This document shows positions 9,529 to 45,140 of a DNA stretch of 64,000 bases, piece by piece. The stretch lies in contig OZ244044.1 of NCBI GenBank assembly GCA_965215275.1, forward strand, positions 832,001-896,000, in the 5' to 3' direction. The stretch is from Thermodesulfobacteriota bacterium (GTDB lineage Bacteria; Desulfobacterota_D; UBA1144; Nemesobacterales; JAJCZQ01). The position numbers and the translations under genes are program-made. Position 1 is the first letter of the stretch. Each line of letters starts with the position of its first letter. The notes beneath the pieces are model-generated. The model saw only the letters and a program-made list of their open reading frames with translations, was not told the origin of the DNA and ran no database searches.

Positions 9529-9552
9529 GGGAATTATTAAGAAAAGTTGACA
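9529..9552. mobile_element. IS1595-like terminal sequence bounding the methyltransferase/HNH island
   Basis: gggaattattaagaaaagttgaca resembles the TIR at 37665. Confidence 0.6.
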
Positions 9553-9730
9553 AAATACTATAACTTTCCTTAATCTTGAACTTTTTTAATAGACGGTTTA
9601 CCCTTTGAATTTACAGTTAAAGTAAACCGTTGGTCCAACTGTTCGGTGGAACTGCACTTGTGTCAAGAAGCGACATTACCGCTTTATCTAATTTGTTCCA
9701 CTCTGCTTTTTACTCACTATGTTTCTACTG

Positions 9731-10819
9731 TTATTTTCCTGACTTTCGTCTGTTGCAATCCCTACATAACATCTGACAATTACTCTCTTCTGTCTTTCCG
9801 CCCTCATTCCAAGGAGTTATGTGGTCCCCTTCCATCTGTTTTATATCAAACTTCTTGTTGCACTTAGGACAAACTCCTTCCTGCTTTTGATATACTTTCA
9901 GTTTCATCGAATCTGAAAATGAACGAATATTTAAATACCTCTCATCTCTTGTTAATACATAAGGATATATTCCCTTCTTATTTGTTACATCATCATCTAA
10001 TATCAAATCTTTCATCTCTTCTTCTAATTTATCAGGATCATATTTGTTATTTTTATATGTGTTATAAAGTGTTCCCCAATCCACACCTTTCATTATCGTC
10101 CTCTTTTCTCCTGTAAATGTTGTCTCTATCCAATTTATCACCTTATTAAAATGCTCCCATAATTCTTTAGCATCATTTTTATGTTTAGCCTGATGAGCCA
10201 TATATTCTTCAATTTTGTTATCACTGATCCACTTTATTGCAGTTTGTAGATACTCTTGTCTTATGGGAGATCCGTTCAAGTATTTTCTTCCTATACCATA
10301 AGCAGAACATCCATTTTTACTGAAATATCTTTTAGCATCTGTAACCCAAGACCCTGAATAAACCGCATTTCTCAACTCTTGTTCTGTTAATTTCTCACCC
10401 GCTATGTTGATCGTTCTAAACCAATCCAACTTCTCAGTGTCCGTTCCGCTACAAAAATAAACCATAAGTTTATAGTTCAATATCTGGTTTTGTTTATCGT
10501 CTTTTAAATTGTCAAAATACATACTGTTAAATGAAAAAGTGCCATTTACATATTGACAGATAGATATTGTCCTTTGTTGTCCATCAATTATCTCAAAGTT
10601 ACCATCTTCTTTGTCCGCCCAATACATAACATTAAGCGGAAAATCTTGAGTTATTGTATTTATAACTGCATCTCTCTCTTTCGTATTGTAAATGAACTCC
10701 CGCTGATACGGAGGTCTTATATCCAACTTTCCACCATATCCAAATACTCCATCATTTCCCTTGTCTGTATATCCTTCAGTTAGTTTACGGACTGTAATTT
10801 CTTTGAGTTTGATTTTCAT
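9731..10819 (-). CDS. DUF262 (GmrSD N-terminal/ParB-like) plus HNH endonuclease
   Basis: PPYQR, IDGQQR, F..IN, and C-terminal CPKC..DHI.P...GG.T...NCQMLC..CN. Confidence 0.85.
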   Translation of the reverse strand: MKIKLKEITVRKLTEGYTDKGNDGVFGYGGKLDIRPPYQREFIYNTKERDAVINTITQDFPLNVMYWADKEDGNFEIIDGQQRTISICQYVNGTFSFNSMYFDNLKDDKQNQILNYKLMVYFCSGTDTEKLDWFRTINIAGEKLTEQELRNAVYSGSWVTDAKRYFSKNGCSAYGIGRKYLNGSPIRQEYLQTAIKWISDNKIEEYMAHQAKHKNDAKELWEHFNKVINWIETTFTGEKRTIMKGVDWGTLYNTYKNNKYDPDKLEEEMKDLILDDDVTNKKGIYPYVLTRDERYLNIRSFSDSMKLKVYQKQEGVCPKCNKKFDIKQMEGDHITPWNEGGKTEESNCQMLCRDCNRRKSGK

Positions 10820-10822
10820 AAT

Positions 10823-11830
10823 TTATAACCTTTTATTCTTGATTAAAATGCGGTGGTAAAGATTTTTACCGTTTATCATTGCAGTTGGATTATTGCCAGT
10901 TAAATAAATCCCAGCAGATTCTTTGCTATTTGTTTTTCCCAGTATATCAAACTGGTCAGGATTATATTTATCCAGAAAAGTAATGGGAACACCCATTACC
11001 CCCCCCCCACCATAATCTATTGGGATTTCTTTAACTTTATTTACATTTATTGCATTGTAATTGTCATATTTAGGATATTCTTCAGGAGTATACTTCTTGT
11101 AGAGTATTAAATCCTCGTGGCGTTTAGATATATCAAGATTAGTAAACCAATTAACTCTACCCATACTAAAATATTTCTTACCATTTTCTATCTTCTTTCT
11201 TGACTCTGTTTTTATATCATAATGTTCTTTAACCCCAAACCATTTTGTTCCACCATTATTAACACCTAACCATAATTTATTTTCTTTTATTAACTTAAAT
11301 ATTTCTTTATAAGTTACTGCATTTTGATCCCCTAATATCACAAATTTTTTGTTATATTTTACCAACTGTACGACATATTCCCTGAACAGAGAAAAAGGGG
11401 GATTTGTTACTACAATATCAGCTTGCTTGAGTAATTCTATACACTCTGGACTACGGAAATCTCCATCACCTTTTAAGTAATTTACTTCAACCTCTTCTAT
11501 ATCAGGCTTCCTGTTATTATTCTTATCGCCTGTATATTCAAGGTAAATGCCTTTGTCAGAATTATTCTGACTAAATAAATCTCTTTCCTGGTTTTTATAG
11601 CAAGTGGTAATGAGTTTCTTTAATCCTAAACTTTCAAACTTATAAGAAAAATAATGAAAGAATTGACTGACTGTCGGATCGTCGCAGTTACAGTAAACTA
11701 TCTTATCCTTAAAATGATCTTTGTAATGCTTCAGTTCCGCTTCAACATCTACAAGTTGCGTATAAAACTCATCTTTCTTAGCATTCTTTGCCCTATGTAA
11801 ATTAGCATTCAAACTTTCTGTAGATTTCAT
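10823..11830 (-). CDS. EcoRI-family adenine methyltransferase, copy B (in frame across a G10 tract)
   Basis: KDEFYT, YCNCDDP, GDGDFRS, TNPPFS and GVPITFLDKY. Confidence 0.9.
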   Translation of the reverse strand: MKSTESLNANLHRAKNAKKDEFYTQLVDVEAELKHYKDHFKDKIVYCNCDDPTVSQFFHYFSYKFESLGLKKLITTCYKNQERDLFSQNNSDKGIYLEYTGDKNNNRKPDIEEVEVNYLKGDGDFRSPECIELLKQADIVVTNPPFSLFREYVVQLVKYNKKFVILGDQNAVTYKEIFKLIKENKLWLGVNNGGTKWFGVKEHYDIKTESRKKIENGKKYFSMGRVNWFTNLDISKRHEDLILYKKYTPEEYPKYDNYNAINVNKVKEIPIDYGGGGVMGVPITFLDKYNPDQFDILGKTNSKESAGIYLTGNNPTAMINGKNLYHRILIKNKRL

Positions 11831-11833
11831 TAT

Positions 11834-12864
11834 TTATACCTTTTTATTTCTAATTAAAATCCTAAAATATGGACACTTCCCTTTAATTGACAAATCTTTT
11901 TCATCATTCCCTTTTCTAAACTTTATTATCTCAAACTGCTCTGGATTATATTTGTCCAAAAAACTGATAGGAACACCGACCCCCCCCCATAATTTTTCGG
12001 AATTTCTTTTATTTTATCCACATTTATAGCATCATAGTTATCATAAGCAGGATATTTCTCAGGGTCATATTTTTCATAAAGAATTAAATCCTCATACCTC
12101 TTGCTATGTTCTAAATTAGTAAACCAAACACCAGATGATCTGCCTTTAACGCTACCATCTATTATTCTATATCCACTACCTTCTTTTTTGGTTGCAACTA
12201 ATTCTTCTGCATATTCTTTAGGAATATCAAATAACATATCGGTTCCCATAGACTTATACCCTAACCACAACTTATTTTCCTTAATTAAAGAAAATATCTC
12301 CTTATAAGTTATAGCGTTCATATTACCAATAATGATAAATTTCTTATTATACTCAATCAACTGTGCAACATATTCCCTGAATAGAGAAAAGGGAGGATTA
12401 GTTACTACAATATCGGCTTGCTTGAGTAATTCTATACACTCTGGACTACGGAAATCACCATCACCTTTTAAATAATTTACTTCAACCTCTTCTATATCAG
12501 GTTTCCTGTTATTATTCTTATCGCCTGTGTATTCAAGATAAATGCCTTTGTCAGAATTATTCTGACTAAATAAATCTCTTTCCTGGTTTTTATAGCAAGT
12601 GGTAATGAGTTTCTTTAATCCTAAACTTTCAAACTTATAAGAAAAATAATGAAAGAATTTACTGACTGTCGGATCGTCGCAGTTACAGTAAACTATCTTG
12701 TTTTTGAAATGCTCTTCATAGTGTCGTAACTCTTCCTCAATATATTCAAGCCGAGTATAAAACTCATCTTTCTTTTCCTTTTTTGCTTTATGCAAATGGA
12801 TATTTGATTGTTTTGTAGACTTCACCGCTATGACTCGTTGAATTAGGTTTTTGTAAAGTAACAT
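11834..12864 (-). CDS. EcoRI-family adenine methyltransferase, copy A, frameshifted at G9 (11980-11988)
   Basis: Same motifs as copy B; the C-terminal GVPISFLDKYNPEQF..RILIRNKKV lies in another frame that G10 would restore; start uncertain. Confidence 0.85.
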
Positions 12865-21067: not shown

Positions 21068-22540
21068 ATGTCAATACGAAACTTTTTTCCGTATTTTCTG
21101 ATATTTAATTTACTACTGATCCCCCTCTGTGCTCCCTACTCTTTCGCGGGCACTGGCACGATAGAAGCATTAAAGAACCGGCTGGCAGAGATGGAAACAG
21201 AGATGATCATGATGAAGAGAAAAATTGCTGAACTGGAATTCAGCAACAAAAGACTGGAGAGGCAAAGCAAAGGGGTCACGGCAGATACGCAGGTCTTACC
21301 AGAAGACGTGTACACAGGAACGGTACAGCAGCCCGTCGGGCAGACCTTTCTTGGAAGGGCCTTTCAGACCTTAAATCCAGATATAAGCGTTATAGGACTT
21401 TTTGCCGGTGCTTGGTATTCAGAGGATGAACCACAGGTACTTGCGGAAGGAGACCCGGAAAACACGGGATTTAACGTGCAGGAGGTCGAGTTAGGGTTTC
21501 AGTCCGTAGTTGACCCTTATTTCAAATTCGACAGTTTCATTGGCTTTGGCGAGCACGTTGAGCTGGAAGAGGCATATGCCACAACGATCATGTCCCTGCC
21601 CCTGAACTCACAGTTCAGGACCGGGGTAATGAGAAGCAAGTTCGGCAGGATCAACCAGCAGCACCGTCATAACCAGAGTTTTGTCACTCTGCCACTTCCA
21701 GCCGCGGAGTTCCTTGGAGCACATTTCAACCCGGCATCAGTGGAAGCTAATTTTCTGCTCCCTGTTCCCTGGTACATGGAACTCAGTGCCTCCATGGGCA
21801 GCCCGGAAGTCGAAACGGCCTCTTTCGACCGTGATGAAGACGCGAACAGCTTCAGCAAGTTCCTTTACACTTCATACCTCTCTAATTTCTTTGAAATTGG
21901 AGAATCCTTAAGTGTTTTGATCGGTGGCTCGTTTGCTACCGGACCTAATAACACGGAACCCGGGAACGGGAACAGGACCAATCTGTACGGCGTGGATTTC
22001 TTTGCCAAGTACAGGCCGATAAAATCCGACCCGTATAAGGAACTGCGACTTCAGTCCGAGTTCTTTTACAGAGATGCCGAAACAGAAGGAACTGACAGGC
22101 AGGACTGGGGTTTTTACGCAGAGACGGTTTACAGGTTCGCAAAAAGATGGGATATCGGTGCAAGATATGCACTCACCGATACCGACGATCCGGTAATGAT
22201 GGAAGAAGAGCACGAGGAGCACGAGGAAGAACATGAAGAAGGACATGAGGAAGAAGAGCACGAGGAAGGAGAGCATAACCATAACAATGGTGGAGATGGA
22301 GGACACATGCACATGCACGCCGATGAAGATATGCACGACGGTCACGATCACGGAACGGGAATACTCGGACTTTTTGGAAAGCGTCAGAAGATCTCCACAA
22401 TGCTGACGTTCACTCCCACGGAGTTTTCAAAGATAAGGCTTGAGTATAACTATCTGGACCCGGATTTCGATGAAGAGCAGCATGGCGTATTCCTTCAGTT
22501 CCAGTATGCAATAGGTGCACACGGTGCACATCCGTTTTAA
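21068..22540 (+). CDS. Putative zinc-regulated outer-membrane receptor/porin with His/Glu-rich loop
   Basis: Signal peptide, NPDIS, VDPY, FGRINQQH.H, C-terminal IGAHGAHPF. Confidence 0.75.
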   Translation: MSIRNFFPYFLIFNLLLIPLCAPYSFAGTGTIEALKNRLAEMETEMIMMKRKIAELEFSNKRLERQSKGVTADTQVLPEDVYTGTVQQPVGQTFLGRAFQTLNPDISVIGLFAGAWYSEDEPQVLAEGDPENTGFNVQEVELGFQSVVDPYFKFDSFIGFGEHVELEEAYATTIMSLPLNSQFRTGVMRSKFGRINQQHRHNQSFVTLPLPAAEFLGAHFNPASVEANFLLPVPWYMELSASMGSPEVETASFDRDEDANSFSKFLYTSYLSNFFEIGESLSVLIGGSFATGPNNTEPGNGNRTNLYGVDFFAKYRPIKSDPYKELRLQSEFFYRDAETEGTDRQDWGFYAETVYRFAKRWDIGARYALTDTDDPVMMEEEHEEHEEEHEEGHEEEEHEEGEHNHNNGGDGGHMHMHADEDMHDGHDHGTGILGLFGKRQKISTMLTFTPTEFSKIRLEYNYLDPDFDEEQHGVFLQFQYAIGAHGAHPF

Positions 22541-27093: not shown

Positions 27094-27582
27094 ATGGAAA
27101 AAAAGAATATGAAAAAAAATAAACAACTCAATAAAAAAAGTAAGTTAAATTCTATTGATGTTGCTAACTATTTTTTAACTAAAATAGATGAAACTTCTGG
27201 GGATTTAATCTCTAACTTAAAGCTACAAAAATTAGTTTACTATGCACAAGGATTCAATTTAGCAATGTTCGGTAAACCTTTATTTCACGATACTATTGAA
27301 GCGTGGATGTACGGACCTGTAGTTCCTGTTTTATATGATGAATATAAAAAAAATGGTGATGGTGCGTTACCCTTTCCAAATAATGTAAACCTTGATAAGT
27401 ATAGCTCTCAAACAAAAGAATTATTAGATGAAGTTTATGATGTATATGGTCAGTATTCTGCCTGGGTTCTTAGCGGTTTTACTCATAACGAACCTCCATA
27501 TAAAAATGCCCGGAAAAGAAAAGACAAGACCATTGTTCACAAAGAATTAAAAAACTACTTTATCACACAATTACACGACTAA
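27094..27582 (+). CDS. Panacea (DUF4065/SocA/GepA) antitoxin
   Basis: NLKLQKLVYYAQG, IEAWMYGPV, THNEPP. Confidence 0.9.
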   Translation: MEKKNMKKNKQLNKKSKLNSIDVANYFLTKIDETSGDLISNLKLQKLVYYAQGFNLAMFGKPLFHDTIEAWMYGPVVPVLYDEYKKNGDGALPFPNNVNLDKYSSQTKELLDEVYDVYGQYSAWVLSGFTHNEPPYKNARKRKDKTIVHKELKNYFITQLHD

Positions 27583-34318: not shown

Positions 34319-34432
34319 TTCACGCTAAGCTGCACTTTAACAAGACGGTTCTATTGAGAATCCGTGTTTGTGGTCACATAAATAATCTGAACAATCATTA
34401 TCGTATTATTAGATTATTTGCAGGAAATCATT

Positions 34433-34936
34433 ATGGCTAAATACAAAGAACTGTCTAAAGATCTATCTGATATAGCAGAGTATTTTATATACCTGTCCAA
34501 CAAGGATGACAGGTATATGACCAGCTTGAAACTGCAAAAGTTAGTTTACTATGCTCAAGCGTGGAACCTGGTATTTAACAATAAGCGATTATTCAAGGAC
34601 ACCATAGAAGCGTGGATACACGGCCCTGCAGTTTATAGCTTATGGAAAGAATATAAAGAGTTCGGATTTGAAAAAATAAGGGTGGATATATCAGATGATT
34701 TTAACTTCTCTGAAAAGACCAAAGAAATACTTGACGAAGTCTGGGACATTTATGGTGGTTTTGACTCAAGGTATTTAGAAGAACTTGTTCATTATGAAAG
34801 ACCCTGGCAGGATGCAAGAGGAAAATTTGACTGTAACGAAACTTCACATGCAAGAATTACTGCTGTATCAATGAAAAAGTATTATCGTAACAGATACAAT
34901 ACAGCAAAGTCAGAAAGGCAGGACCTGAATCGTTAG
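34433..34936 (+). CDS. Panacea (DUF4065) antitoxin without an evident toxin
   Basis: LKLQKLVYYAQAW, IEAWIHGP, H.ERPWQDAR. Confidence 0.9.
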   Translation: MAKYKELSKDLSDIAEYFIYLSNKDDRYMTSLKLQKLVYYAQAWNLVFNNKRLFKDTIEAWIHGPAVYSLWKEYKEFGFEKIRVDISDDFNFSEKTKEILDEVWDIYGGFDSRYLEELVHYERPWQDARGKFDCNETSHARITAVSMKKYYRNRYNTAKSERQDLNR

Positions 34937-35143: not shown

Positions 35144-37154
35144 ATGAATATGAACATCTTATTTAGAATAATCCCCCCCCCCATCTAAGTTAATAATATC
35201 CTTTTTCTTTCTTCTGTGCCTTGTATCCATTGAGGCATATGGCCAGCTCAATAACTGTGACACCAGTACGACCGCTTTCAATGATCCCTTATACGGCTGT
35301 CAGTGGCATCTGAAAAATACAGGACAGCTCGGGACTGTAACTGCCTCTGGAGAAGATATAAACATAGAAGGGGTATGGGATGATAATGTATTTGGTGCCG
35401 GAATTAACGTGGCGGTGGTAGATGATGGTATGCAAACGGGTCATGAGGACCTTGCTGATAATGTAAATACCAGCCTGAACCACGATTATTCAGGGAACAA
35501 TGACGTATACGACCCTTCAAAAACTCGTGGAACACGTGTATCGGGAGTTATAGCAGGAGCGGGAGATAACAGCCTTGGAGTAAGGGGCACAGCACCGCAG
35601 GCAGGCATCTATAGTTATAATTTAGCTGGTAACTTGAATAACGCTAACGCAAAGGATGCCATGATCCGTAATAGAGATACAACGGCTGTATCCATCAACA
35701 ACTGGGGACCGAATGACCTGCCTCTTCTCAGGGAGACTTCATCAGAGTGGGAGGAAGGAGTGGGAACGGGTATAAGTGAAGGGTTTGGTGGTAAAGGGGT
35801 ATTTTACGTGTGGGCTGCTGGAGATGGCAGCCGCGACCAGGCTAATTTTGATGAGTATTCCAACTACTACGCTGTAACCACCGTATGTTCGGTAGATGGA
35901 GAAGGAAGTAATAGTTCTTTTTCAGAAGAGGGAGTAAATCTTTGGGTATGTGCTCCAGGTGAACGTATAACAACTACTGATAATAACGATAGATATGTTT
36001 TTGATGCAAGAGGGACAGCATATTCAGCAGCGCAGGTTTCAGGTGTGGCGGCACTGATGAGAGAAGTAAACGGTAACCTTAGCTGGAGAGACCTTAAGCT
36101 GATACTTGCAGCTTCAGCTCGTAAGAACGACGCTTCTGACACGGGCTGGGAGACAGGAGCACATAAATATGGTTCTGATTCAGAAAGTTATAATTATAAT
36201 CCCAAATATGGTTTTGGTGTGGTAGATGCTGAAGCAGCAGCAGGACTTGCTGAAAGCTGGACCAATGTTCCAATGATGAGAACTCAGACCGCTTCCTCTG
36301 GGACTATTGATATGGCAATCCCCGACCACAACAATGGAGTAGACGGAGAAGCTACTGCCATACTGACAGTACCAGATACTTCTCTTTCTTTTACAGAGTT
36401 TATAGAGATAGAGCTTAATTTCTCTCACACATACTTTCCGGACCTGAACATACAGATAACCTCTCCTGACGGTACTGTGTCGCAACTTAGTAATAGATAT
36501 ATAGCAGACGCTTTATCATATGTAGTTAGTAATACACTCACCAGGAGCGACTTTGCGTACACAAACAAAACTCATCGTTTTGGTTCAGCCAGACACCTTG
36601 GAGAAGGTCCTGCCGGAGAATGGACTTTGAGAATATCTGACACTGCTAATGGAGATTCAGGGACTTTACACTCATGGAGCATTAAAGCCTATGGACATAG
36701 TACGGCACCAAGCTTTGACGGTGAGACGATAGATGATCAGGAGTATTTTACGGGTACAGCAGTAACAGAAACGCTGCCTGCTGCAACAGGAGGGGATGGA
36801 ACATTAACATACAGTTTAACACCTGCATTACCAACTGGATTGAATTTTAACGCATCTACCCGAGAGATAAGCGGAACACCCACCAGTGTATCATCGTCTG
36901 ATACTTACATGTATACGGTAACAGATGATGATGGGGATATGGCTGAGTTGAGTTTCACGATCAGGGTAGTGAATCGTCCTGCTCCGTTACCACCAAGACA
37001 AACACCAGGTACTGATGCTGGCGGTGGAGGAGGATGTACGATCTCCGATCAGAACGAAGCTGTTCCTGATATGCTCACAGCATTGGCATCTCTGATGCTG
37101 ATACCCTTATCAGTATTGATCAGAAGGAAGATAAGGTCTCAGATAAGTAATTAA
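35144..37154 (+). CDS. Kexin-like S8 subtilase homolog with P-domain, Ig-like domain and C-terminal anchor; frameshifted at C10 (35173-35182); catalytic residues altered
   Basis: DPLYGCQWHL, VVDDG, P-domain G.WTL...D....G.L.SW, GGGGGC plus TM; the signal peptide is in frame only with C9. Confidence 0.8.
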
Positions 37155-37664
37155 TAACTTACTCCTTTCCAGGACACTTAACTATCTGAGATATTTCCGT
37201 CAGATATAATTTCGTTAAAAACATCGTCTTTGTTCATTTGGAATAAGTTACATATACTATTCCCAGTTGTTGCTTGATATTCATGTAAGAATATCAGTAA
37301 CAATCTTTTAAGATTCTCTCTAACCTCAAGTTCACTCCACATAGGGGACCTGTCAGGAACGGGTTTGCGTCTCGATCAGACGTTTAAGTCTTATAACAAA
37401 CGAGGGGTTTCAATCAGCAGTTTCGTTCATTCTTTTGGTATAGTACTTTTTCATAGTATCTGTAGAAATTTCAATACTGCATGTTTCATCTATATCAAGC
37501 CCCATACGTGCCTCCTGCCAAGGTTCCTCATAGTGTGTGAAGTTCTAGGTATCGTGCATCGTAACCGCCATAAGCCGCCCATACATCATCTAAATGAAGT
37601 TTAAATATCCTTTGGCAGATCTTCTGCTGACGGTTCATTAAATGACGTTTCTATTGTTTTAAAA

Positions 37665-38985
37665 GGGAATTATAGTGAATAGTTGACAGAAAGAAAAATT
37701 GATAAACAGGTCAGAAATGGTAGTATTATAGTATGGTTAGAACGATTACAAGAACTGTAAAGGCAGATAGTGTTTTTCATAAAAGGCTGGATGAATTCTT
37801 ACAACAGCTTACCGACCTGTATAACGGAGCTTTATATCACAGATTAAGATCTTATGACTGGTATGAAAAAACTATCTCTAAATACGAACAGTTTAACGAA
37901 CTAACTGAGGTCCGAGAGCAAGACAAGGAATTTGAAAAGTTTAATGTTACAGCTCAAAGGAGCGTTCTGGAAAGACTGGATAATGCATACAGTCCTTATT
38001 TGAACTATTTAAAGAATAAAAAAGCAGGTAAGAAGGTCAGGAAGGTGGGCAGACCAAAATACAAAGGTCCAAACAGACCTGTCAGAAGTTTTGAAACAAA
38101 CAATTATAAAAATATTGAAAAGATCGGCAGAAGAACGTATTTAACGATAAAGGGAGTTGGCAGATTATCTTTCAAAGGTAGTATGCCTGACGGAGTTGTT
38201 TTAAAACAACCTAAAACAACAATAAGGATAGTTAAAACAGCTATAAGAATAAAGATCCAGTTTCTATGTAAGATTACCAGCGAAAAGAAAAGACCTATGG
38301 ACAGGTCCATAGGGATCGATCTTGGAATTATAAACAGAATGGCTTTTTCAGATGGAACTAAAATACCAGGAGTTCGGTTGAATAGAAAGGAACTGAAAAG
38401 AAAGCAGAGAATTGTTTCAAGAGCGGTAAAAGGTTCTGACAGCAGAAAGAAGAAAGTTTTATCGTTAGCAAAGGAATGGGAACGAACTACTGATCGTGAA
38501 AATAATGCTATACACAGATTAACAACAGAGATTGTAAAGAAATGTAATCATATAAAATTGGAAGATTTAAAGATTCAAAATATGGTAAAGAACAGGTACT
38601 TAGCAAAATCCATAACGGAACAGCAATGGGGGAAGATTAAAACACAACTTGACTACAAAGCCGAGATAGCTGGAGGCAGGCTGGTTTTAGTTAAACATCA
38701 TTATACAACAAGAGCTTGTTCTGAATGCGGAAAGGTAAATCCAAAACTGCCTCTGTCTGAAAGAGTATTCAGCTGTATGTATTGCGGTTATTCAGAAGAC
38801 AGGGATATAAATGCAGGTAAAAATATCAATACTCTTAATGAAGGAGACTTCATATCGGGTGGGAATAAGGTAGAAATACTCCCGATGAGTGCTAAGAGTA
38901 TCAGATCAAAAGAGATCGGGGATAGAGGAACTCTGCACTCAGAACAGTACGAGTAGTTGTTTGTCAGCTATTCACTATAATTCCC
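37665..38985 (+). mobile_element. Non-autonomous TIR element with IS1595-like ends carrying only tnpB
   Basis: 24-bp inverted repeats at 37665-37688 and 38962-38985 (23/24 identical); flanks ttttaaaa and ttttaaat. Confidence 0.9.
37733..38956 (+). CDS. tnpB: TnpB family RNA-guided endonuclease
   Basis: GIDLG, LEDL, TTRACSECG..FSCMYCG..EDRDINAGKNI; RuvC D-E-D intact. Confidence 0.92.
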   Translation: MVRTITRTVKADSVFHKRLDEFLQQLTDLYNGALYHRLRSYDWYEKTISKYEQFNELTEVREQDKEFEKFNVTAQRSVLERLDNAYSPYLNYLKNKKAGKKVRKVGRPKYKGPNRPVRSFETNNYKNIEKIGRRTYLTIKGVGRLSFKGSMPDGVVLKQPKTTIRIVKTAIRIKIQFLCKITSEKKRPMDRSIGIDLGIINRMAFSDGTKIPGVRLNRKELKRKQRIVSRAVKGSDSRKKKVLSLAKEWERTTDRENNAIHRLTTEIVKKCNHIKLEDLKIQNMVKNRYLAKSITEQQWGKIKTQLDYKAEIAGGRLVLVKHHYTTRACSECGKVNPKLPLSERVFSCMYCGYSEDRDINAGKNINTLNEGDFISGGNKVEILPMSAKSIRSKEIGDRGTLHSEQYE

Positions 38986-39274
38986 TTTTAAATCCAGAAC
39001 GTTTGTATTTTTTGTACAAACTTCTTACAGCAGGACCATGTATCCATGCTTCGATCGGGGCGTCATACAGTTTTCTGTTAAAAAATACTAAATGCCATGC
39101 TTGGGCATAATATACCAACTTCTGCAGTTTTAAGTTGGTAATGTGTCTGTCAGACTTATTGGACAGGTATATAAAATACTCTGCAATATCGGATAACTCC
39201 TGATATTTAGCCATAATATGTTCTTACAAAATAATCTTATAATACAATAAAGTACGTAACTTCCTTGCTTTAAG

Positions 39275-39658
39275 CTACTGTATTTCAGACTTGTTTTTTT
39301 CTGTTTTGTCTTCCTCGGACATTATCCGCTTAATGGCCTCATTGTACAGCTCTATATATTCCTCAATGCGGTTATGTATGGTTTTCTCCATTGTCTCAAG
39401 TTTGTCCGCATATTTATCGGTAAGTTTTATCTGAAGTTCAGCAAGCTGTCTGAGCTCCTCTTTCGAAGTGTTCTGCTCCAGTACTTCAGTGATAATCTCA
39501 ATAATTTTAGGATACAGATACGGAGCATTGTCCTGCATCTGAGCTTCAAGAGAGGATTCCCAGGTAAAGTACTTGTGCATAGCGAAGTTAAAAGGGTCTA
39601 TCTTCATACTTTTTCTTAGCTCTATTATCTTCTTTATAATATCAGCGGTATCTTTCAT
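39275..39658 (-). CDS. Hypothetical helical protein
   Basis: 127-aa ORF with no recognised motif. Confidence 0.55.
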   Translation of the reverse strand: MKDTADIIKKIIELRKSMKIDPFNFAMHKYFTWESSLEAQMQDNAPYLYPKIIEIITEVLEQNTSKEELRQLAELQIKLTDKYADKLETMEKTIHNRIEEYIELYNEAIKRIMSEEDKTEKNKSEIQ

Positions 39659-39753
39659 TTCATCACCAGCGTTATAAGACTATAAACAATTTAACACTCT
39701 TCTGATACCATACAACCATAAACTAAAAATAATCCGGTTATTCCAGCGACCGG

Positions 39754-42138
39754 TTAATATACGGTCACTTCTGGCTCCTCCGAGGTCAATTTCAACTTTT
39801 TACCCTTGTGAAACAAAGAGACTTCTTCACCTTTGGTCAATCTGTACTTTACTTTCTTTCTTGTGATCTCCACGCTTATCGTGCAACTTCTGAACGTTAC
39901 GGAAAACTTCAATTTCTTTATCTGTGGAGGGATACTGGGGGCAAACCCGAGCGTTCCTCCGTTACTTGTCATTCCGGCAAAACCAAAAACAAACACCATC
40001 CATGTCCCCGCCATAGAAGCGATGTGGCATCCATCTTCAACGTTACCGGACACATCGGCAAGGTCCATCAACGCGGATTGTCCCGCGTACAGGAACGATC
40101 TGTCATGATACCCTATCTTTGAAGCCATTATGCTCTGAATTGGCACTGACAGAGAGGAATCACCCGTTGTGATCGGATCATAGTAGTCAAAGTTTTTCTT
40201 CATATCGTTTTTGGAAAACCTGTGGTTCAGAAGGAACATCGTCAGTACAACGTCAGCCTGTTTTATCACCCTATGTCTGTAGATCACTAACGGGTGAAAG
40301 TTCAGCAGCAGGGGATACTTGTCCACAGGAGTGTTCTCAAAGTCCCATTCCTCCTTGCTGAGAAACTCGTCGTCCTGAGGATGTATCTTCATTTTCTCAT
40401 CATAGGGGATGTACATGCTGTCCACTGCCTTCTTCCAGATATCCAGTTCGGAAACGTCGAATTTCGTCTTATACACAAGGCTTTCAAATATCTCAGGTTC
40501 CGTTCTCTGCATCTTTTCGATGGTTTCTATCGCAAACCTCATATTCTCCTGTGCCATTAAGTTCGTATACAGATTGTTGTTAACCACCGTGTTATATTCA
40601 TCGGGTCCCGTTACGCCATTAATACAGAACTTTCCATTCCTCTTTTTTGAATAAAATCCCAGGTCCGCCCAGAGCCTTGACGTCTCCACCAGCATTTCCG
40701 CACCGTACTCAAAAAGGAAACCATTGTCCCCGGTGGCATTAACGTACTTCTTCAGTGCGTAAATTATATCGGCGTTTATGTGGTACTGAGCGGTGCCCGC
40801 TGCATAGTAAGCAGAGGCTTCTTCGCCGTTTATCGTTCGCCACGGGAACATCGCTCCTTTCTGATTCAGTCTTCTGGCGTATTCCCTTGCCTTATCCAGC
40901 ATGCCGTGGCGAAAGGTCAGAAGGTTCTTTGCTATCTTGGAGTTCGTGTAAACAAGGAAAGGCATAAGGAATATCTCTATATCCCAGAAGTAATGCCCTT
41001 CATACGCCTGTCCGGTAAGTCCCTTGGCAGGAACCCCCGCAGTCTTGACCATTGCGGTCGCCTGACAAATGTTAAACAGATTAAACCTTAACGCCTGCTG
41101 AAGTTGCTCCGTGGACAGGTCGGAATCCGCCCTCGACTTGTAAAGCATGACCTCGACGTCGCTTCTTTTCCAGAAATCATCAAGGTACTTCTGCTGTCCC
41201 TTGAGCAGGTCGTCAAAACCGAACTTCTTCGTTCTGCTGAGTGCCCTTTTTGCCCTGACGGCGAGTTCGTCCGGAGTGTGTGGCGCCGTTATCGTGGTGT
41301 GATAGGTCATGTATTTGGTCAGATCGATAGGTTCTCCCTTCCGGGCGTCGACCATATAGGTAACCTCTCCCCTGTTCTCTTCACATCCGCTTGAGTGAGA
41401 ATACGCACATCTGGTCTCAAGTTCATGATCTATACCCGCTGCAAGTCCCAGGCCGCTGTTCTTTGCAAAATGGCATAATACCAGTCTTGTATCATCCGCA
41501 TAATGCAGTGAGGGCTGAAGGACCCTGTATCCAAACCTTCTTGACAGCCTCGGGTCTGATTTCTTTTTATTTCCGTTGTCCGGACAGATGCTGTTGTTGA
41601 CGATATCAGAGGTTATGACCACCGGTGCATCCGCGTTCAGTACGGTCACGCTGTAGGAGATCGCAGCAAGATGACGATGTTGAAAAGATATGAGCCGTTT
41701 TGATCTGATAAGTACCTTTTTCCCTGAAGCCAGCTGCCATATTACCTCTCTGTCGAGCGTACCGCGCCTCATGTCCAGTACCCGTTCAAACTTCAGAAGT
41801 TTGGCCGTGGGAAGATAAAAAGGCTCGTCATCAACGTAGAGCCTTATTATCTTTGAATCCGTTACGTTTATGATCGTCTGACCGGTCTGGGCAAATCCGT
41901 AGGCTTTCTCACCATAGATTATCGGCCAGGATTCGTAAAATCCATTTACAAAGGTCCCGTTTTCAAAGCAGGGTTTTCCTTCTTCAAAAACGCCTCGCAT
42001 TCCAAGATAGCCGTTGGACATAGAAAATATGGTCTCAGTGCGGTTGAGCAGTTCAGGATAAAACTTCTTCTCTATGATCTTCCAGGGGTCCGGGGGATAG
42101 ATGTGTCTGGGCAGCTCGGTTATTCTTCCATGTATCAT
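39754..42138 (-). CDS. GH65 glycoside phosphorylase (trehalose/maltose/kojibiose type)
   Basis: SNGYLGMRG, KGLTG..YEGHYFWD.E, GPDEY, KQAD, DSSLS. Confidence 0.92.
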   Translation of the reverse strand: MIHGRITELPRHIYPPDPWKIIEKKFYPELLNRTETIFSMSNGYLGMRGVFEEGKPCFENGTFVNGFYESWPIIYGEKAYGFAQTGQTIINVTDSKIIRLYVDDEPFYLPTAKLLKFERVLDMRRGTLDREVIWQLASGKKVLIRSKRLISFQHRHLAAISYSVTVLNADAPVVITSDIVNNSICPDNGNKKKSDPRLSRRFGYRVLQPSLHYADDTRLVLCHFAKNSGLGLAAGIDHELETRCAYSHSSGCEENRGEVTYMVDARKGEPIDLTKYMTYHTTITAPHTPDELAVRAKRALSRTKKFGFDDLLKGQQKYLDDFWKRSDVEVMLYKSRADSDLSTEQLQQALRFNLFNICQATAMVKTAGVPAKGLTGQAYEGHYFWDIEIFLMPFLVYTNSKIAKNLLTFRHGMLDKAREYARRLNQKGAMFPWRTINGEEASAYYAAGTAQYHINADIIYALKKYVNATGDNGFLFEYGAEMLVETSRLWADLGFYSKKRNGKFCINGVTGPDEYNTVVNNNLYTNLMAQENMRFAIETIEKMQRTEPEIFESLVYKTKFDVSELDIWKKAVDSMYIPYDEKMKIHPQDDEFLSKEEWDFENTPVDKYPLLLNFHPLVIYRHRVIKQADVVLTMFLLNHRFSKNDMKKNFDYYDPITTGDSSLSVPIQSIMASKIGYHDRSFLYAGQSALMDLADVSGNVEDGCHIASMAGTWMVFVFGFAGMTSNGGTLGFAPSIPPQIKKLKFSVTFRSCTISVEITRKKVKYRLTKGEEVSLFHKGKKLKLTSEEPEVTVY

Positions 42139-44179: not shown

Positions 44180-44644
44180 TTATCTTCTGTTCTTATCAGT
44201 CTCAAAGTGGCTTTTAGTTATTGCCACTATATAAACTGTTGCTAATTTAGTAAAATAAAATATTCTTTCTGTTTTACCTATTATTAACTCTTCTAATTGA
44301 ACAGATTTGTCCAAACCTTTAAACAATGGAGCATAATCGTTTATCCCTTTCACTTTCTTATTTTTGTTACTTATAAATTCATGAAATGGGTTATCTGAAA
44401 TATACTCTGTTGCTTGTATTTGATTGATTATGTTTGTTATTCTATTTGTTTCCTTTTCAGTAAAGTGGTCTATCTGACTTATTTTGTCATTATGGAATTT
44501 ATCATTATCAACTTGCCAGTATCTAATCTCATTAGGTTTGTTGGTAGGGTAAGCAACAGTTCTAATAATAGATTTTCTATTATTAGCATGAATCTCTTTA
44601 GATAGACTAATTCTGTGTTTTTTTATTACAGATTTTTTAACGAT
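44180..44644 (-). pseudogene. Uncalled ~150-codon open frame (probable Panacea toxin) lacking a canonical start
   Basis: Stop-free frame IVKKSVIKKHRIS..YAPLFKGLDKSVQLEELIIGKTERIFYF..VYIVAITKSHFETDKNRR*. Confidence 0.6.
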
Positions 44645-45140
44645 TTAGATTCTGCCTTTCTATCTTTGCTGTATTGTATCTATTACGATAATACTCTTTC
44701 ATTGATACAGCAGTAATTCTTGCATCTGAAACTTCTTTACAGTCAAGTTTTCCTCTTGCATCCTGCCAAGGTCTTTCGTAATGAGTAAGTTCTTCTAAAT
44801 ACCTTGCGTCAAAACCACCATAAACATCCCAAACTTCGTCAAGTATTTCCTTGGTCTTTTCAGAGAAGTTAAAATTGTTTACTACATTTACTTCTATTCG
44901 TCCAAATTTAAACTTATTGTATTTTTTCCACAAAGCATATACAACTGGGCCGTGTATCCACGCTTCTATAGGGTCTTTGAATAACCGTTTATGGTTAAAT
45001 ACCAGATTCCACGCTTGAGCATAATAAACTAACTTTTGCAGTTTTAAGTTAGTCATATACTTGTCATCCTTGTTGGATAGGTATATAAAGTACTCCGCTA
45101 TATCAGATAATTCTTTAGATAATTTTTTAGATTTAGCCAT
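44637..45140 (-). CDS. Panacea (DUF4065) antitoxin
   Basis: Close paralog of 34433-34936. Confidence 0.9.
   Translation of the reverse strand: MAKSKKLSKELSDIAEYFIYLSNKDDKYMTNLKLQKLVYYAQAWNLVFNHKRLFKDPIEAWIHGPVVYALWKKYNKFKFGRIEVNVVNNFNFSEKTKEILDEVWDVYGGFDARYLEELTHYERPWQDARGKLDCKEVSDARITAVSMKEYYRNRYNTAKIERQNLNR

Follow-up and report, generated by a model that had tools for sequence, protein, structure and literature searches.

The window, that is, the whole 64,000-nt stretch of DNA analysed here, was taken from the genome of a Thermodesulfobacteriota bacterium (GCA_965215275.1, contig OZ244044.1, positions 832,001 to 896,000) and contains, at 37665–38985, a 1321-bp transposable element whose only gene is tnpB, encoding an RNA-guided nuclease. 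Coordinates are positions in the window unless they are prefixed with G000:C1, where G000 is the source genome (1.99 Mb, one contig); G001 is a genome of the same genus. An earlier note on this DNA had described a tnpB-only element between terminal inverted repeats (TIRs) with a target-site duplication, and this description was confirmed: the ATG lies 44 nt after the left repeat and the stop codon 5 nt before the right one, the 24-nt repeats are identical at 23/24 positions in a pairwise match and rank top among the 30 inverted pairs found in 36500–40200, and the RuvC D/E/D residues are intact (D196, E277 and D358), as are four zinc-finger cysteines. The 8-mers flanking the element (37657–37664 and 38986–38993) agree at 7/8 positions, and at the differing base the right copy agrees with the uninterrupted homologue of the host gene in G001 (locus L109). 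Over 18 TnpB elements of G000, the identity between the two flanks peaks at a length of 8 (mean 0.78, exact in 9/18), compared with 0.33–0.47 at the other lengths from 2 to 12, in agreement with the 8-bp duplication read in the earlier note.

The element interrupts a Panacea (SocA-like) antitoxin gene on the opposite strand. The earlier note had stated that removing the element together with one 8-mer restores the reading frame of this gene, which was found to be true across the junction itself (RSGFKTIE) and not beyond, the frame being stopped after residue 94. When aligned to L109, the joined flanks are gap-free at the insertion site and carry a 1-nt insertion and a 2-nt deletion further downstream, because of which the host gene is, judged by its sequence, a pseudogene even without the element. 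The G001 homologue is not syntenic and has CT at the offset where the window has TG. Both junctions of the window copy are unchanged in the contigs of two studies (X2 and X5), and together with the mismatch in the duplication and the decayed host gene this makes the copy look old. No joint skipping the window copy was found in the contigs of 4 of 18 sequencing runs; contigs drop rare variants, and low-level excision is possible. The 18 runs listed included no RNA run, which is uninformative as to expression. The features of the locus are collected in the table.

Table. Features of the TnpB element and of the interrupted gene (window coordinates).
Feature	Position	Strand	Basis or remark
3' remainder of Panacea gene, two further frameshifts	37410..37664	-	three-frame translation and alignment to L109
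TG dinucleotide directly 5' of left direct repeat	37655..37656	+	predicted transposon-adjacent motif (TAM), putative role
Left copy of 8-bp target-site duplication	37657..37664	+	7/8 identical to right copy
Left terminal inverted repeat, IS1595 type	37665..37688	+	23/24 to right repeat
Sigma-70-like promoter	37699..37726	+	consensus scan, 9/12 matches; ends 6 nt before ATG
tnpB, 407 aa	37733..38956	+	single long open reading frame; RuvC D196/E277/D358 and C4 zinc finger intact
Predicted omegaRNA scaffold	38854..38985	+	overlaps tnpB 3' end, runs to right-repeat tip; first stem 38854–38859 with 38881–38886
First-hairpin motif, predicted pseudoknot strand	38861..38866	+	complementary to the last six bases of the element (38980–38985)
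Right terminal inverted repeat	38962..38985	+	tip likely doubles as omegaRNA scaffold 3' end
Right copy of 8-bp duplication	38986..38993	+	predicted first eight guide bases (guide ~38986–39001, predicted register)
5' part of interrupted Panacea (SocA-like) antitoxin gene	38986..39214	-	PF13274, 43.5 bits

The TnpB protein of the window copy scored 200 bits against NF040570 (guided_TnpB, cut-off 100) and fell below the cut-offs of the IS200 and IS607 TnpB profiles (NF038280, 109 bits vs. a cut-off of 350). TnpB profiles gave 24 matches at 22 loci in G000, and all full-size TnpB elements (19/19) lie between IS1595-type inverted ends. These elements belong to family A (8 copies of ~1320 bp, one of them the window copy), family B (3 copies, ~1295 bp) and family C (8 copies, ~1555 bp), the proteins of A and C being ~45–50% identical; the other loci comprise a derivative shortened to 326 bp by deletion, a remnant of 543 bp that still has ends, and a copy that a nested cassette splits in two. 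The dN/dS ratios, computed with the last 45 codons left out, were 0.15–0.27 in 10 family A pairs and 0.24–0.45 in 7 family C pairs; by this measure tnpB is under purifying selection, and the catalytic residues are kept in nearly all copies. Three end types occur among the family A copies, with left and right ends matching in each, which suggests either shell swapping or concerted change. For copy A3 an empty site exists in G001–G003, where the intergenic DNA is too diverged to read the TG or the 8-mer.

Some of these loci have peculiarities of their own. The 326-bp derivative (G000:C1:1742862-1743187) stems from family A and has lost all of tnpB but its 3' end, with the predicted omegaRNA still present; its 8-bp duplication is perfect and preceded by TG, and it might provide a guide alone and depend on TnpB acting in trans. 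At G000:C1:800769-805179, tnpB is split by a 3.7-kb cassette with IS1595-type ends and open reading frames (ORFs) of 536 and 406 aa, a putative methylase-nuclease cassette in which the longer ORF is presumably cytosine-methylase-like. Two family C elements stand back to back at G000:C1:1616480-1619604, 16 bp apart, with their left 8-mers directly adjoining.

The ends of these elements were compared with those of the IS1595 elements in the same genome. G000 has 28 matches to PF12762 (IS1595 transposase), none of them inside any TnpB element, and the three transposases that were checked all pass NF033547. The 16 IS1595 copies examined for ends have the same kind of repeat and the same 8-bp optimum (exact in 7), and the ends of the window copy match theirs at 13–19/24 positions. 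Family B ends match those of the intact T6 (326 aa) at 23–24/24, the ends of A4 and A7 match those of T1 at 22/24, and G001 harbours an intact 310-aa IS1595 transposase with T1-type ends. The assignment to IS1595, which the earlier note had made from the repeats and the length of the duplication, therefore stands, as they match the ends of transposase-bearing elements in the same genome. With tnpB as its only gene, the window copy lacks a DDE_Tnp_IS1595 transposase of its own and so is not an autonomous IS1595 element. Its inverted repeats and duplication set it apart from IS200/IS605, and the one weak Y1 match of G000 lies ~48 kb from the nearest TnpB and is presumably associated with repetitive extragenic palindromes (REP); membership in IS607 is contradicted by the low NF038280 score and by the lack of any resolvase (PF00239) match in G000. 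A search of 66 TnpB loci, including flanks of 1.5–3 kb, detected no IS1595 transposase (positive control 34/35), and the transposase match nearest to the window copy is 39 kb away. The shell is almost certainly a non-autonomous IS1595-type element, and the window copy was likely moved by a transposase encoded elsewhere, mobilisation in trans being suggested because there are multiple copies with duplications of their own. To this extent the proposal in the earlier note that a DDE transposon family adopted TnpB as a non-autonomous unit is supported; the outline of such an arrangement has already been published, and any present-day mobility of the window copy is putative.

Besides G000, homologues occur in 8/40 related genomes. 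A total of 56 relative loci were examined, 20 from related genomes and 36 from further records, the named ones being mostly Ca. Dadabacteria or Thermodesulfobacteriota; family D relatives are 35–43% identical to the window TnpB. IS1595-type ends are present at 40/56 loci, some of which represent one site seen twice. Among these 40, 29 score at least 18/24 (control maximum 17), and 11 lower-scoring ones were accepted on a duplication or a conserved right end; the other 16 loci consist of 5 without room on the contig, 6 without a pair, and 5 more distant TnpBs without ends. The earlier note had considered a one-off nested insertion. In this case an IS605-type tnpB element would have jumped into an IS1595 miniature element and be inert by now, an explanation to which the apparent age of the window copy (duplication mismatch, decayed host gene, same junctions in two studies) would be favourable. 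The copy survey largely refutes it and leaves it hardly credible, since the 19 elements in three G000 families and the 40 loci elsewhere sit at different sites, most with their own duplications, and 3' alignments of TnpB elements show no IS605-type right-end hairpin nested inside the right repeat. The TIR-less relatives L020, L025, L032 and L038 do have what appears to be an IS605-type end hairpin.

A single clade of TIR-bound TnpBs is rejected by the approximately unbiased test (p-AU 5e-37) only with the TIR-less L021 kept outside, the value being 0.08 with L021 included, for groups that were named after a tree had been seen and with only quick trees finished. Two independent captures (A+C+D and B+E) had been seen in the quick trees, and this claim was dropped. 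The TnpB encoded at L021 itself (G019:C4:551-1753) falls in with families B and E; the locus resembles them in its 3' hairpin, lacks inverted ends and is followed by two copies of a ~40-nt repeat, and it is possibly a domesticated or CRISPR-like derivative.

A one-sided motif was found directly outside the left duplication. For the counts, duplications of at least 7/8 were required, and strict de-duplication then kept 20 of 30 sites. G precedes the left 8-mer at 6/6 family A and 18/19 family D sites with such duplications, and at 0/9 transposase-bearing IS1595 controls at the same offset. After de-duplication, G is present at 19/20 sites and TG at 16/20 (flank background 0.23 and 0.045), compared with C at 8/20 and CA at 4/20 at the mirror position (discordant sites 12 vs. 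1, p 0.003). Without the duplication filter the numbers are 31/34 vs. 1/19 controls, two of those controls being doubtful pairs, and T1-type ends read by eye have G at 2/15, both in the same flank. In family C, A occupies this position at 8/8 sites (controls 7/19), and family B has TA at 3/3, which is not significant alone (p 0.08–0.2). The TG/G bias holds in the young pair A5/A6 (dS 0.013), in the frameshifted A7 and in the 326-bp deleted copy; it follows the TnpB clade across several end types, and the first duplicated base tracks the end type.

Two other explanations of this bias have to be weighed here. The first places it at insertion and not at retention: TnpB or its ribonucleoprotein would bind TG-adjacent DNA, and the IS1595 transposase would insert with its duplication right after the TG. 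This would account for a nearly complete bias (19/20), for its presence in the young, frameshifted and deleted copies, and for its tracking of the TnpB clade across different end types. No such coupling is described in the published passages compared, nearly all tnpB copies keep their catalytic residues, and the right flanks (guides) of different copies are unrelated, because of which the targeting of insertion is not RNA-directed; we therefore regard steering at insertion as unlikely. Guide-directed insertion, a candidate in its own right, was rejected on the same dissimilarity of the right flanks. The second explanation has the transposase act asymmetrically on unequal ends, with TnpB as a passenger or with a guide that has another role. 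It is in keeping with the many cargo genes in the IS1595 elements of G000 (methylases and nucleases in T3, T4, T6, T7 and T8), with the link between the first duplicated base and the end type, and with the somewhat raised mirror C; against it stand the lack of a G signal in tnpB-less elements with related ends (the 0/9 and 2/15 given above), a base that differs between TnpB families, the purifying selection on tnpB and a loop-to-tip complement specific to TnpB right ends (described below), and on balance we find it quite improbable.

In several relatives of the same order (L015-L019, L024, L029, L033, L035 and L042), the start codon of the next gene lies within or just after the right repeat. 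The elements are thus frequently located where a gene begins and may provide its start codon, and selection for that could shape the site bias.

The 3' part of the elements may encode a structured RNA. The last ~130 bases are conserved between families A and C despite the divergence of their proteins (~45–50% identity), and two-sided changes were seen at 7/19 predicted omegaRNA pairs among 29 distinct family D ends, with no Rfam match in 37400–39300 (E ≤ 1). When the fold is made with the tip held open, a short motif in the first hairpin stays unpaired in all five families. Watson-Crick pairs between this loop and tip positions -1 to -5 are possible in 43, 45, 44, 43 and 34 of 45 distinct A, C and D ends, respectively (shuffle p 0.0002, overstated since the rows are kin). 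Two-sided changes occurred once at the -3 pair, in L050/L078 and without a counterpart in the left repeat, and once at the -5 pair, in C5/C6/C8. Four nucleotides complementary to the right tip are present 90–135 nt upstream at 51/59 TnpB right ends (A 8/8, B 3/3, C 8/8, D 28/33, E 4/7), compared with 9/59 left ends of TnpB elements (mirror test) and 2/19 IS1595 right ends. Family E keeps the complement of positions -6 to -3 in 7/7 while its outer pairs vary, which would place the boundary between scaffold and guide at the tip, base 1 of the right duplicate being the first guide base. The same check on TIR-less relatives, with guessed ends, gave a loop match in 1/3 loci. ISDra2 has its positions -5 to -3, which are among those kept in family E, paired with -103 to -105 (PMC10097598), and the loop-to-tip register of the window copy is the same.

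Because of the one-sided G and the loop-to-tip complement, it is likely that the TAM lies outside the duplication and that the guide starts at the right repeat. A TAM reaching two bases into the duplication was set second, given that the first duplicated base tracks the end type and that family E keeps only the -6 to -3 pairs. Self-targets consisting of TG and 12 guide bases are absent for 19/19 G000 guides, few being expected by chance. The promoter consensus scan returned 2 sites vs. 0.3 expected, and the tnpB transcript is likely leaderless, starting from the predicted sigma-70-like promoter.

From what is seen in the sequence, namely the shell, the copy family, the purifying selection, the one-sided TG and the loop-to-tip complementarity, we infer a mechanism that we hold to be fairly probable, in which an IS1595-ended, tnpB-only element is moved in trans and TnpB is predicted to cut the emptied site and to drive its refilling. 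An IS1595 transposase would recognise the ends and insert the element at AT-rich 8-mers. The omegaRNA would be transcribed through the right repeat, whose tip would close the pseudoknot in place of the IS605 right end, so that the guide would begin at base 1 of the right duplicate and run into the flank. Excision that leaves one 8-mer would place TG directly before the whole guide match (TG, 8-mer, right flank), and TnpB could then cut the emptied site, with repair from a filled copy restoring the element. Such precise excision is plausible because inverse PCR on ISApl4, which belongs to the IS1595 family, yielded a product whose size fits a circle with a single 8-mer (PMC12561309). The filled site would be safe on both sides: on the left, TG is followed by only 7–8 matching bases and then by the repeat, below the ~12 TAM-proximal matches needed by ISDra2 TnpB (PMC10097598), and on the right, what precedes the full match is the repeat tip and not TG. 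Copies beside TG would be kept and others lost, which would produce the bias. A further-reaching version, a functional fusion in which the tip is the pseudoknot strand, the whole duplication is guide, the TAM has two bases, and TnpB both refills sites and steers the DDE transposase to TAM-adjacent sites, seems doubtful to us; if true, it would make a nuclease-active TnpB a target-selection factor, and these elements a source of compact nucleases with a two-base TAM.

Several observations weigh against the refilling mechanism or the predictions on which it is built. As for the motif, the bases in question in families C (A) and B (TA) are frequent ones in this DNA, and family E shows only a purine (7/7); a bias of 95% is high for retention alone, and a two-base TAM would be shorter than the published 5-base TAMs (PMC13639567). 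Part of the G signal may come from the transposase, because the mirror C (8/20) exceeds background, and the controls are few and not transposase-matched, as only 1/17 IS1595 loci of the relatives gave a usable end pair. Regarding the RNA, only two two-sided events were found among the loop-to-tip pairs, the -5 pair fails in 10/45 ends, and near-invariant pairs are little informative because the transposase also fixes the tip and the loop motif lies in coding frame. With respect to the shell, the 8-bp duplications are imperfect in 9/18 TnpB elements, and the best match in G000 to the ends of the window copy (19/24) is T1, which is frameshifted, the intact transposase copies matching at 13–17/24 only.

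Other IS1595-type elements and Panacea genes were noted around the locus and in the genome. At 9529–11911 the window has a 2.4-kb stretch between IS1595-type ends (18/24) and without transposase, whose cargo is an EcoRI-type adenine methylase (10826–11830, minus strand) and a GmrSD-N/HNH nuclease (9734–10819, minus strand); by its gene content this is a restriction-modification cassette, likewise non-autonomous and with a shell of the same kind. At least three miniature IS1595 derivatives of 420–446 bp with T1-type ends (G000:C1:17470-17889, 21513-21955 and 1900512-1900957) contain no ORF of 55 aa or more. Four Panacea (SocA-like) genes are found in 18 kb of the window, at 27094–27579 (+), 34418–34936 (+), 37410–39214 (-, the interrupted one) and 44640–45140 (-), and a fifth at G000:C1:939536-940054. 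Beside the interrupted gene, 35409–37154 (+) encodes an S8 peptidase with a P domain, an Ig repeat and a Gly-rich C-terminal tail.

Non-autonomous cargo elements are reportedly an established concept in the IS1595 family, in the form of the mobile insertion cassettes and transporter IS of Siguier et al. in 2009. Such cargo elements resemble the present ones in their short inverted repeats, the AT-rich duplication of 8 bp, which is the norm in the family (PMC8101967), and the transposase supplied by another copy (family features in PMC8101967 and PMC12561309); they differ in that an RNA-guided nuclease is carried here, the RNA of which seems to extend over the end itself and to make use of it, and in that the sites are orientation-biased. 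The subgroup ISNwi of this family, with an end consensus and catalytic-motif spacing of its own, is named in the published passages compared, which give no end consensus. ISDra2, an IS605/IS1341-type element, shares the canonical RuvC domain and zinc finger with the window copy. Its RNA, like the one predicted here, covers the 3' end of tnpB as well as the right end, with pairing predicted between the terminal bases and a motif ~100–125 nt upstream and with a guide from the right flank (PMC10097598). Unlike ISDra2, the window copy is bounded by inverted repeats and an 8-bp duplication and not by hairpin ends, it lacks a Y1 TnpA, and its predicted TAM lies 8 bp from the left end instead of abutting it; IS200/IS605 elements are characterised by Y1 TnpA and hairpin ends without inverted repeats or duplication (PMC13565253).

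The DDE-linked, TIR-bound arrangement of TnpB is, going by the published passages compared, not new in kind. Altae-Tran 2023 (PMC10691335) defined six DDE-linked TnpB groups (DDE-1 to DDE-6) with inverted terminal repeats by a transposase within 1000 bp, naming IS630 for DDE-6, and also reported solo TnpBs flanked by these same ends, for which movement in trans was proposed. As here, these TnpBs lie between inverted repeats with their 3' end within 250 bp of the element end; unlike those of the DDE-linked groups, the TnpBs of G000 have no transposase beside them. DDE-5, which the paper mentions where it deals with rearranged catalytic sites and plasmids, has a TA motif 8 bp upstream of its predicted end (PMC10691335 and its supplement), the same offset as here, where family B of G000 has TA. 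The window clade, by contrast, has TG, and the window TnpB is canonical and ~30% identical to its listed plasmid matches; our plasmid search gave 4108 matching records, all <60% identical, with 28–31% among the 25 matches listed. In the text of PMC10691335 that was compared, IS1595 is not named as a TnpB partner and occurs only in a profile list of the supplement, and Fig. 4, Additional Files 10–11 and Tables S1–S2 could hold cases. A 2026 review lists ISL2, IS630 and IS1031 as DDE partners of TnpB (PMC13565253), and no paper linking TnpB to IS1595 was found by title or by the start of the abstract, subscription papers lying outside this search. Three points may go beyond the published text compared, in possible overlap with supplements: IS1595 as the partner, a two-base motif that is specific to the clade and was compared with controls, and an RNA fold predicted to make use of the repeat tip. 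Eukaryotic TIR transposons with Fanzor1 offer a parallel, as there, too, DDE elements flanked by TIRs and target duplications have taken up a nuclease of the TnpB family. The geometry is different: the TAM of Fanzor includes the 5' duplicate and its scaffold the 3' duplicate, and no pseudoknot is left in Fanzor1 (PMC13565253). For the present elements we predict that the pseudoknot has been retained, that the duplicate serves as guide and that the TAM is situated outside it.

The rarity of TnpB in prokaryotic DDE transposons has been suggested to reflect the misfit between target duplications and rigid TAM recognition (PMC13565253). The elements described here offer a testable solution for a long and variable duplication, different from that of Fanzor: the pseudoknot would be kept and closed by the repeat tip, the duplicate would be used as guide, and the TAM would be shrunk and placed outside. 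A single genome provides three TnpB families with different predicted motifs together with transposase-bearing controls, and a natural TnpB with a two-base TAM, if true, would widen the targeting range of compact editors.

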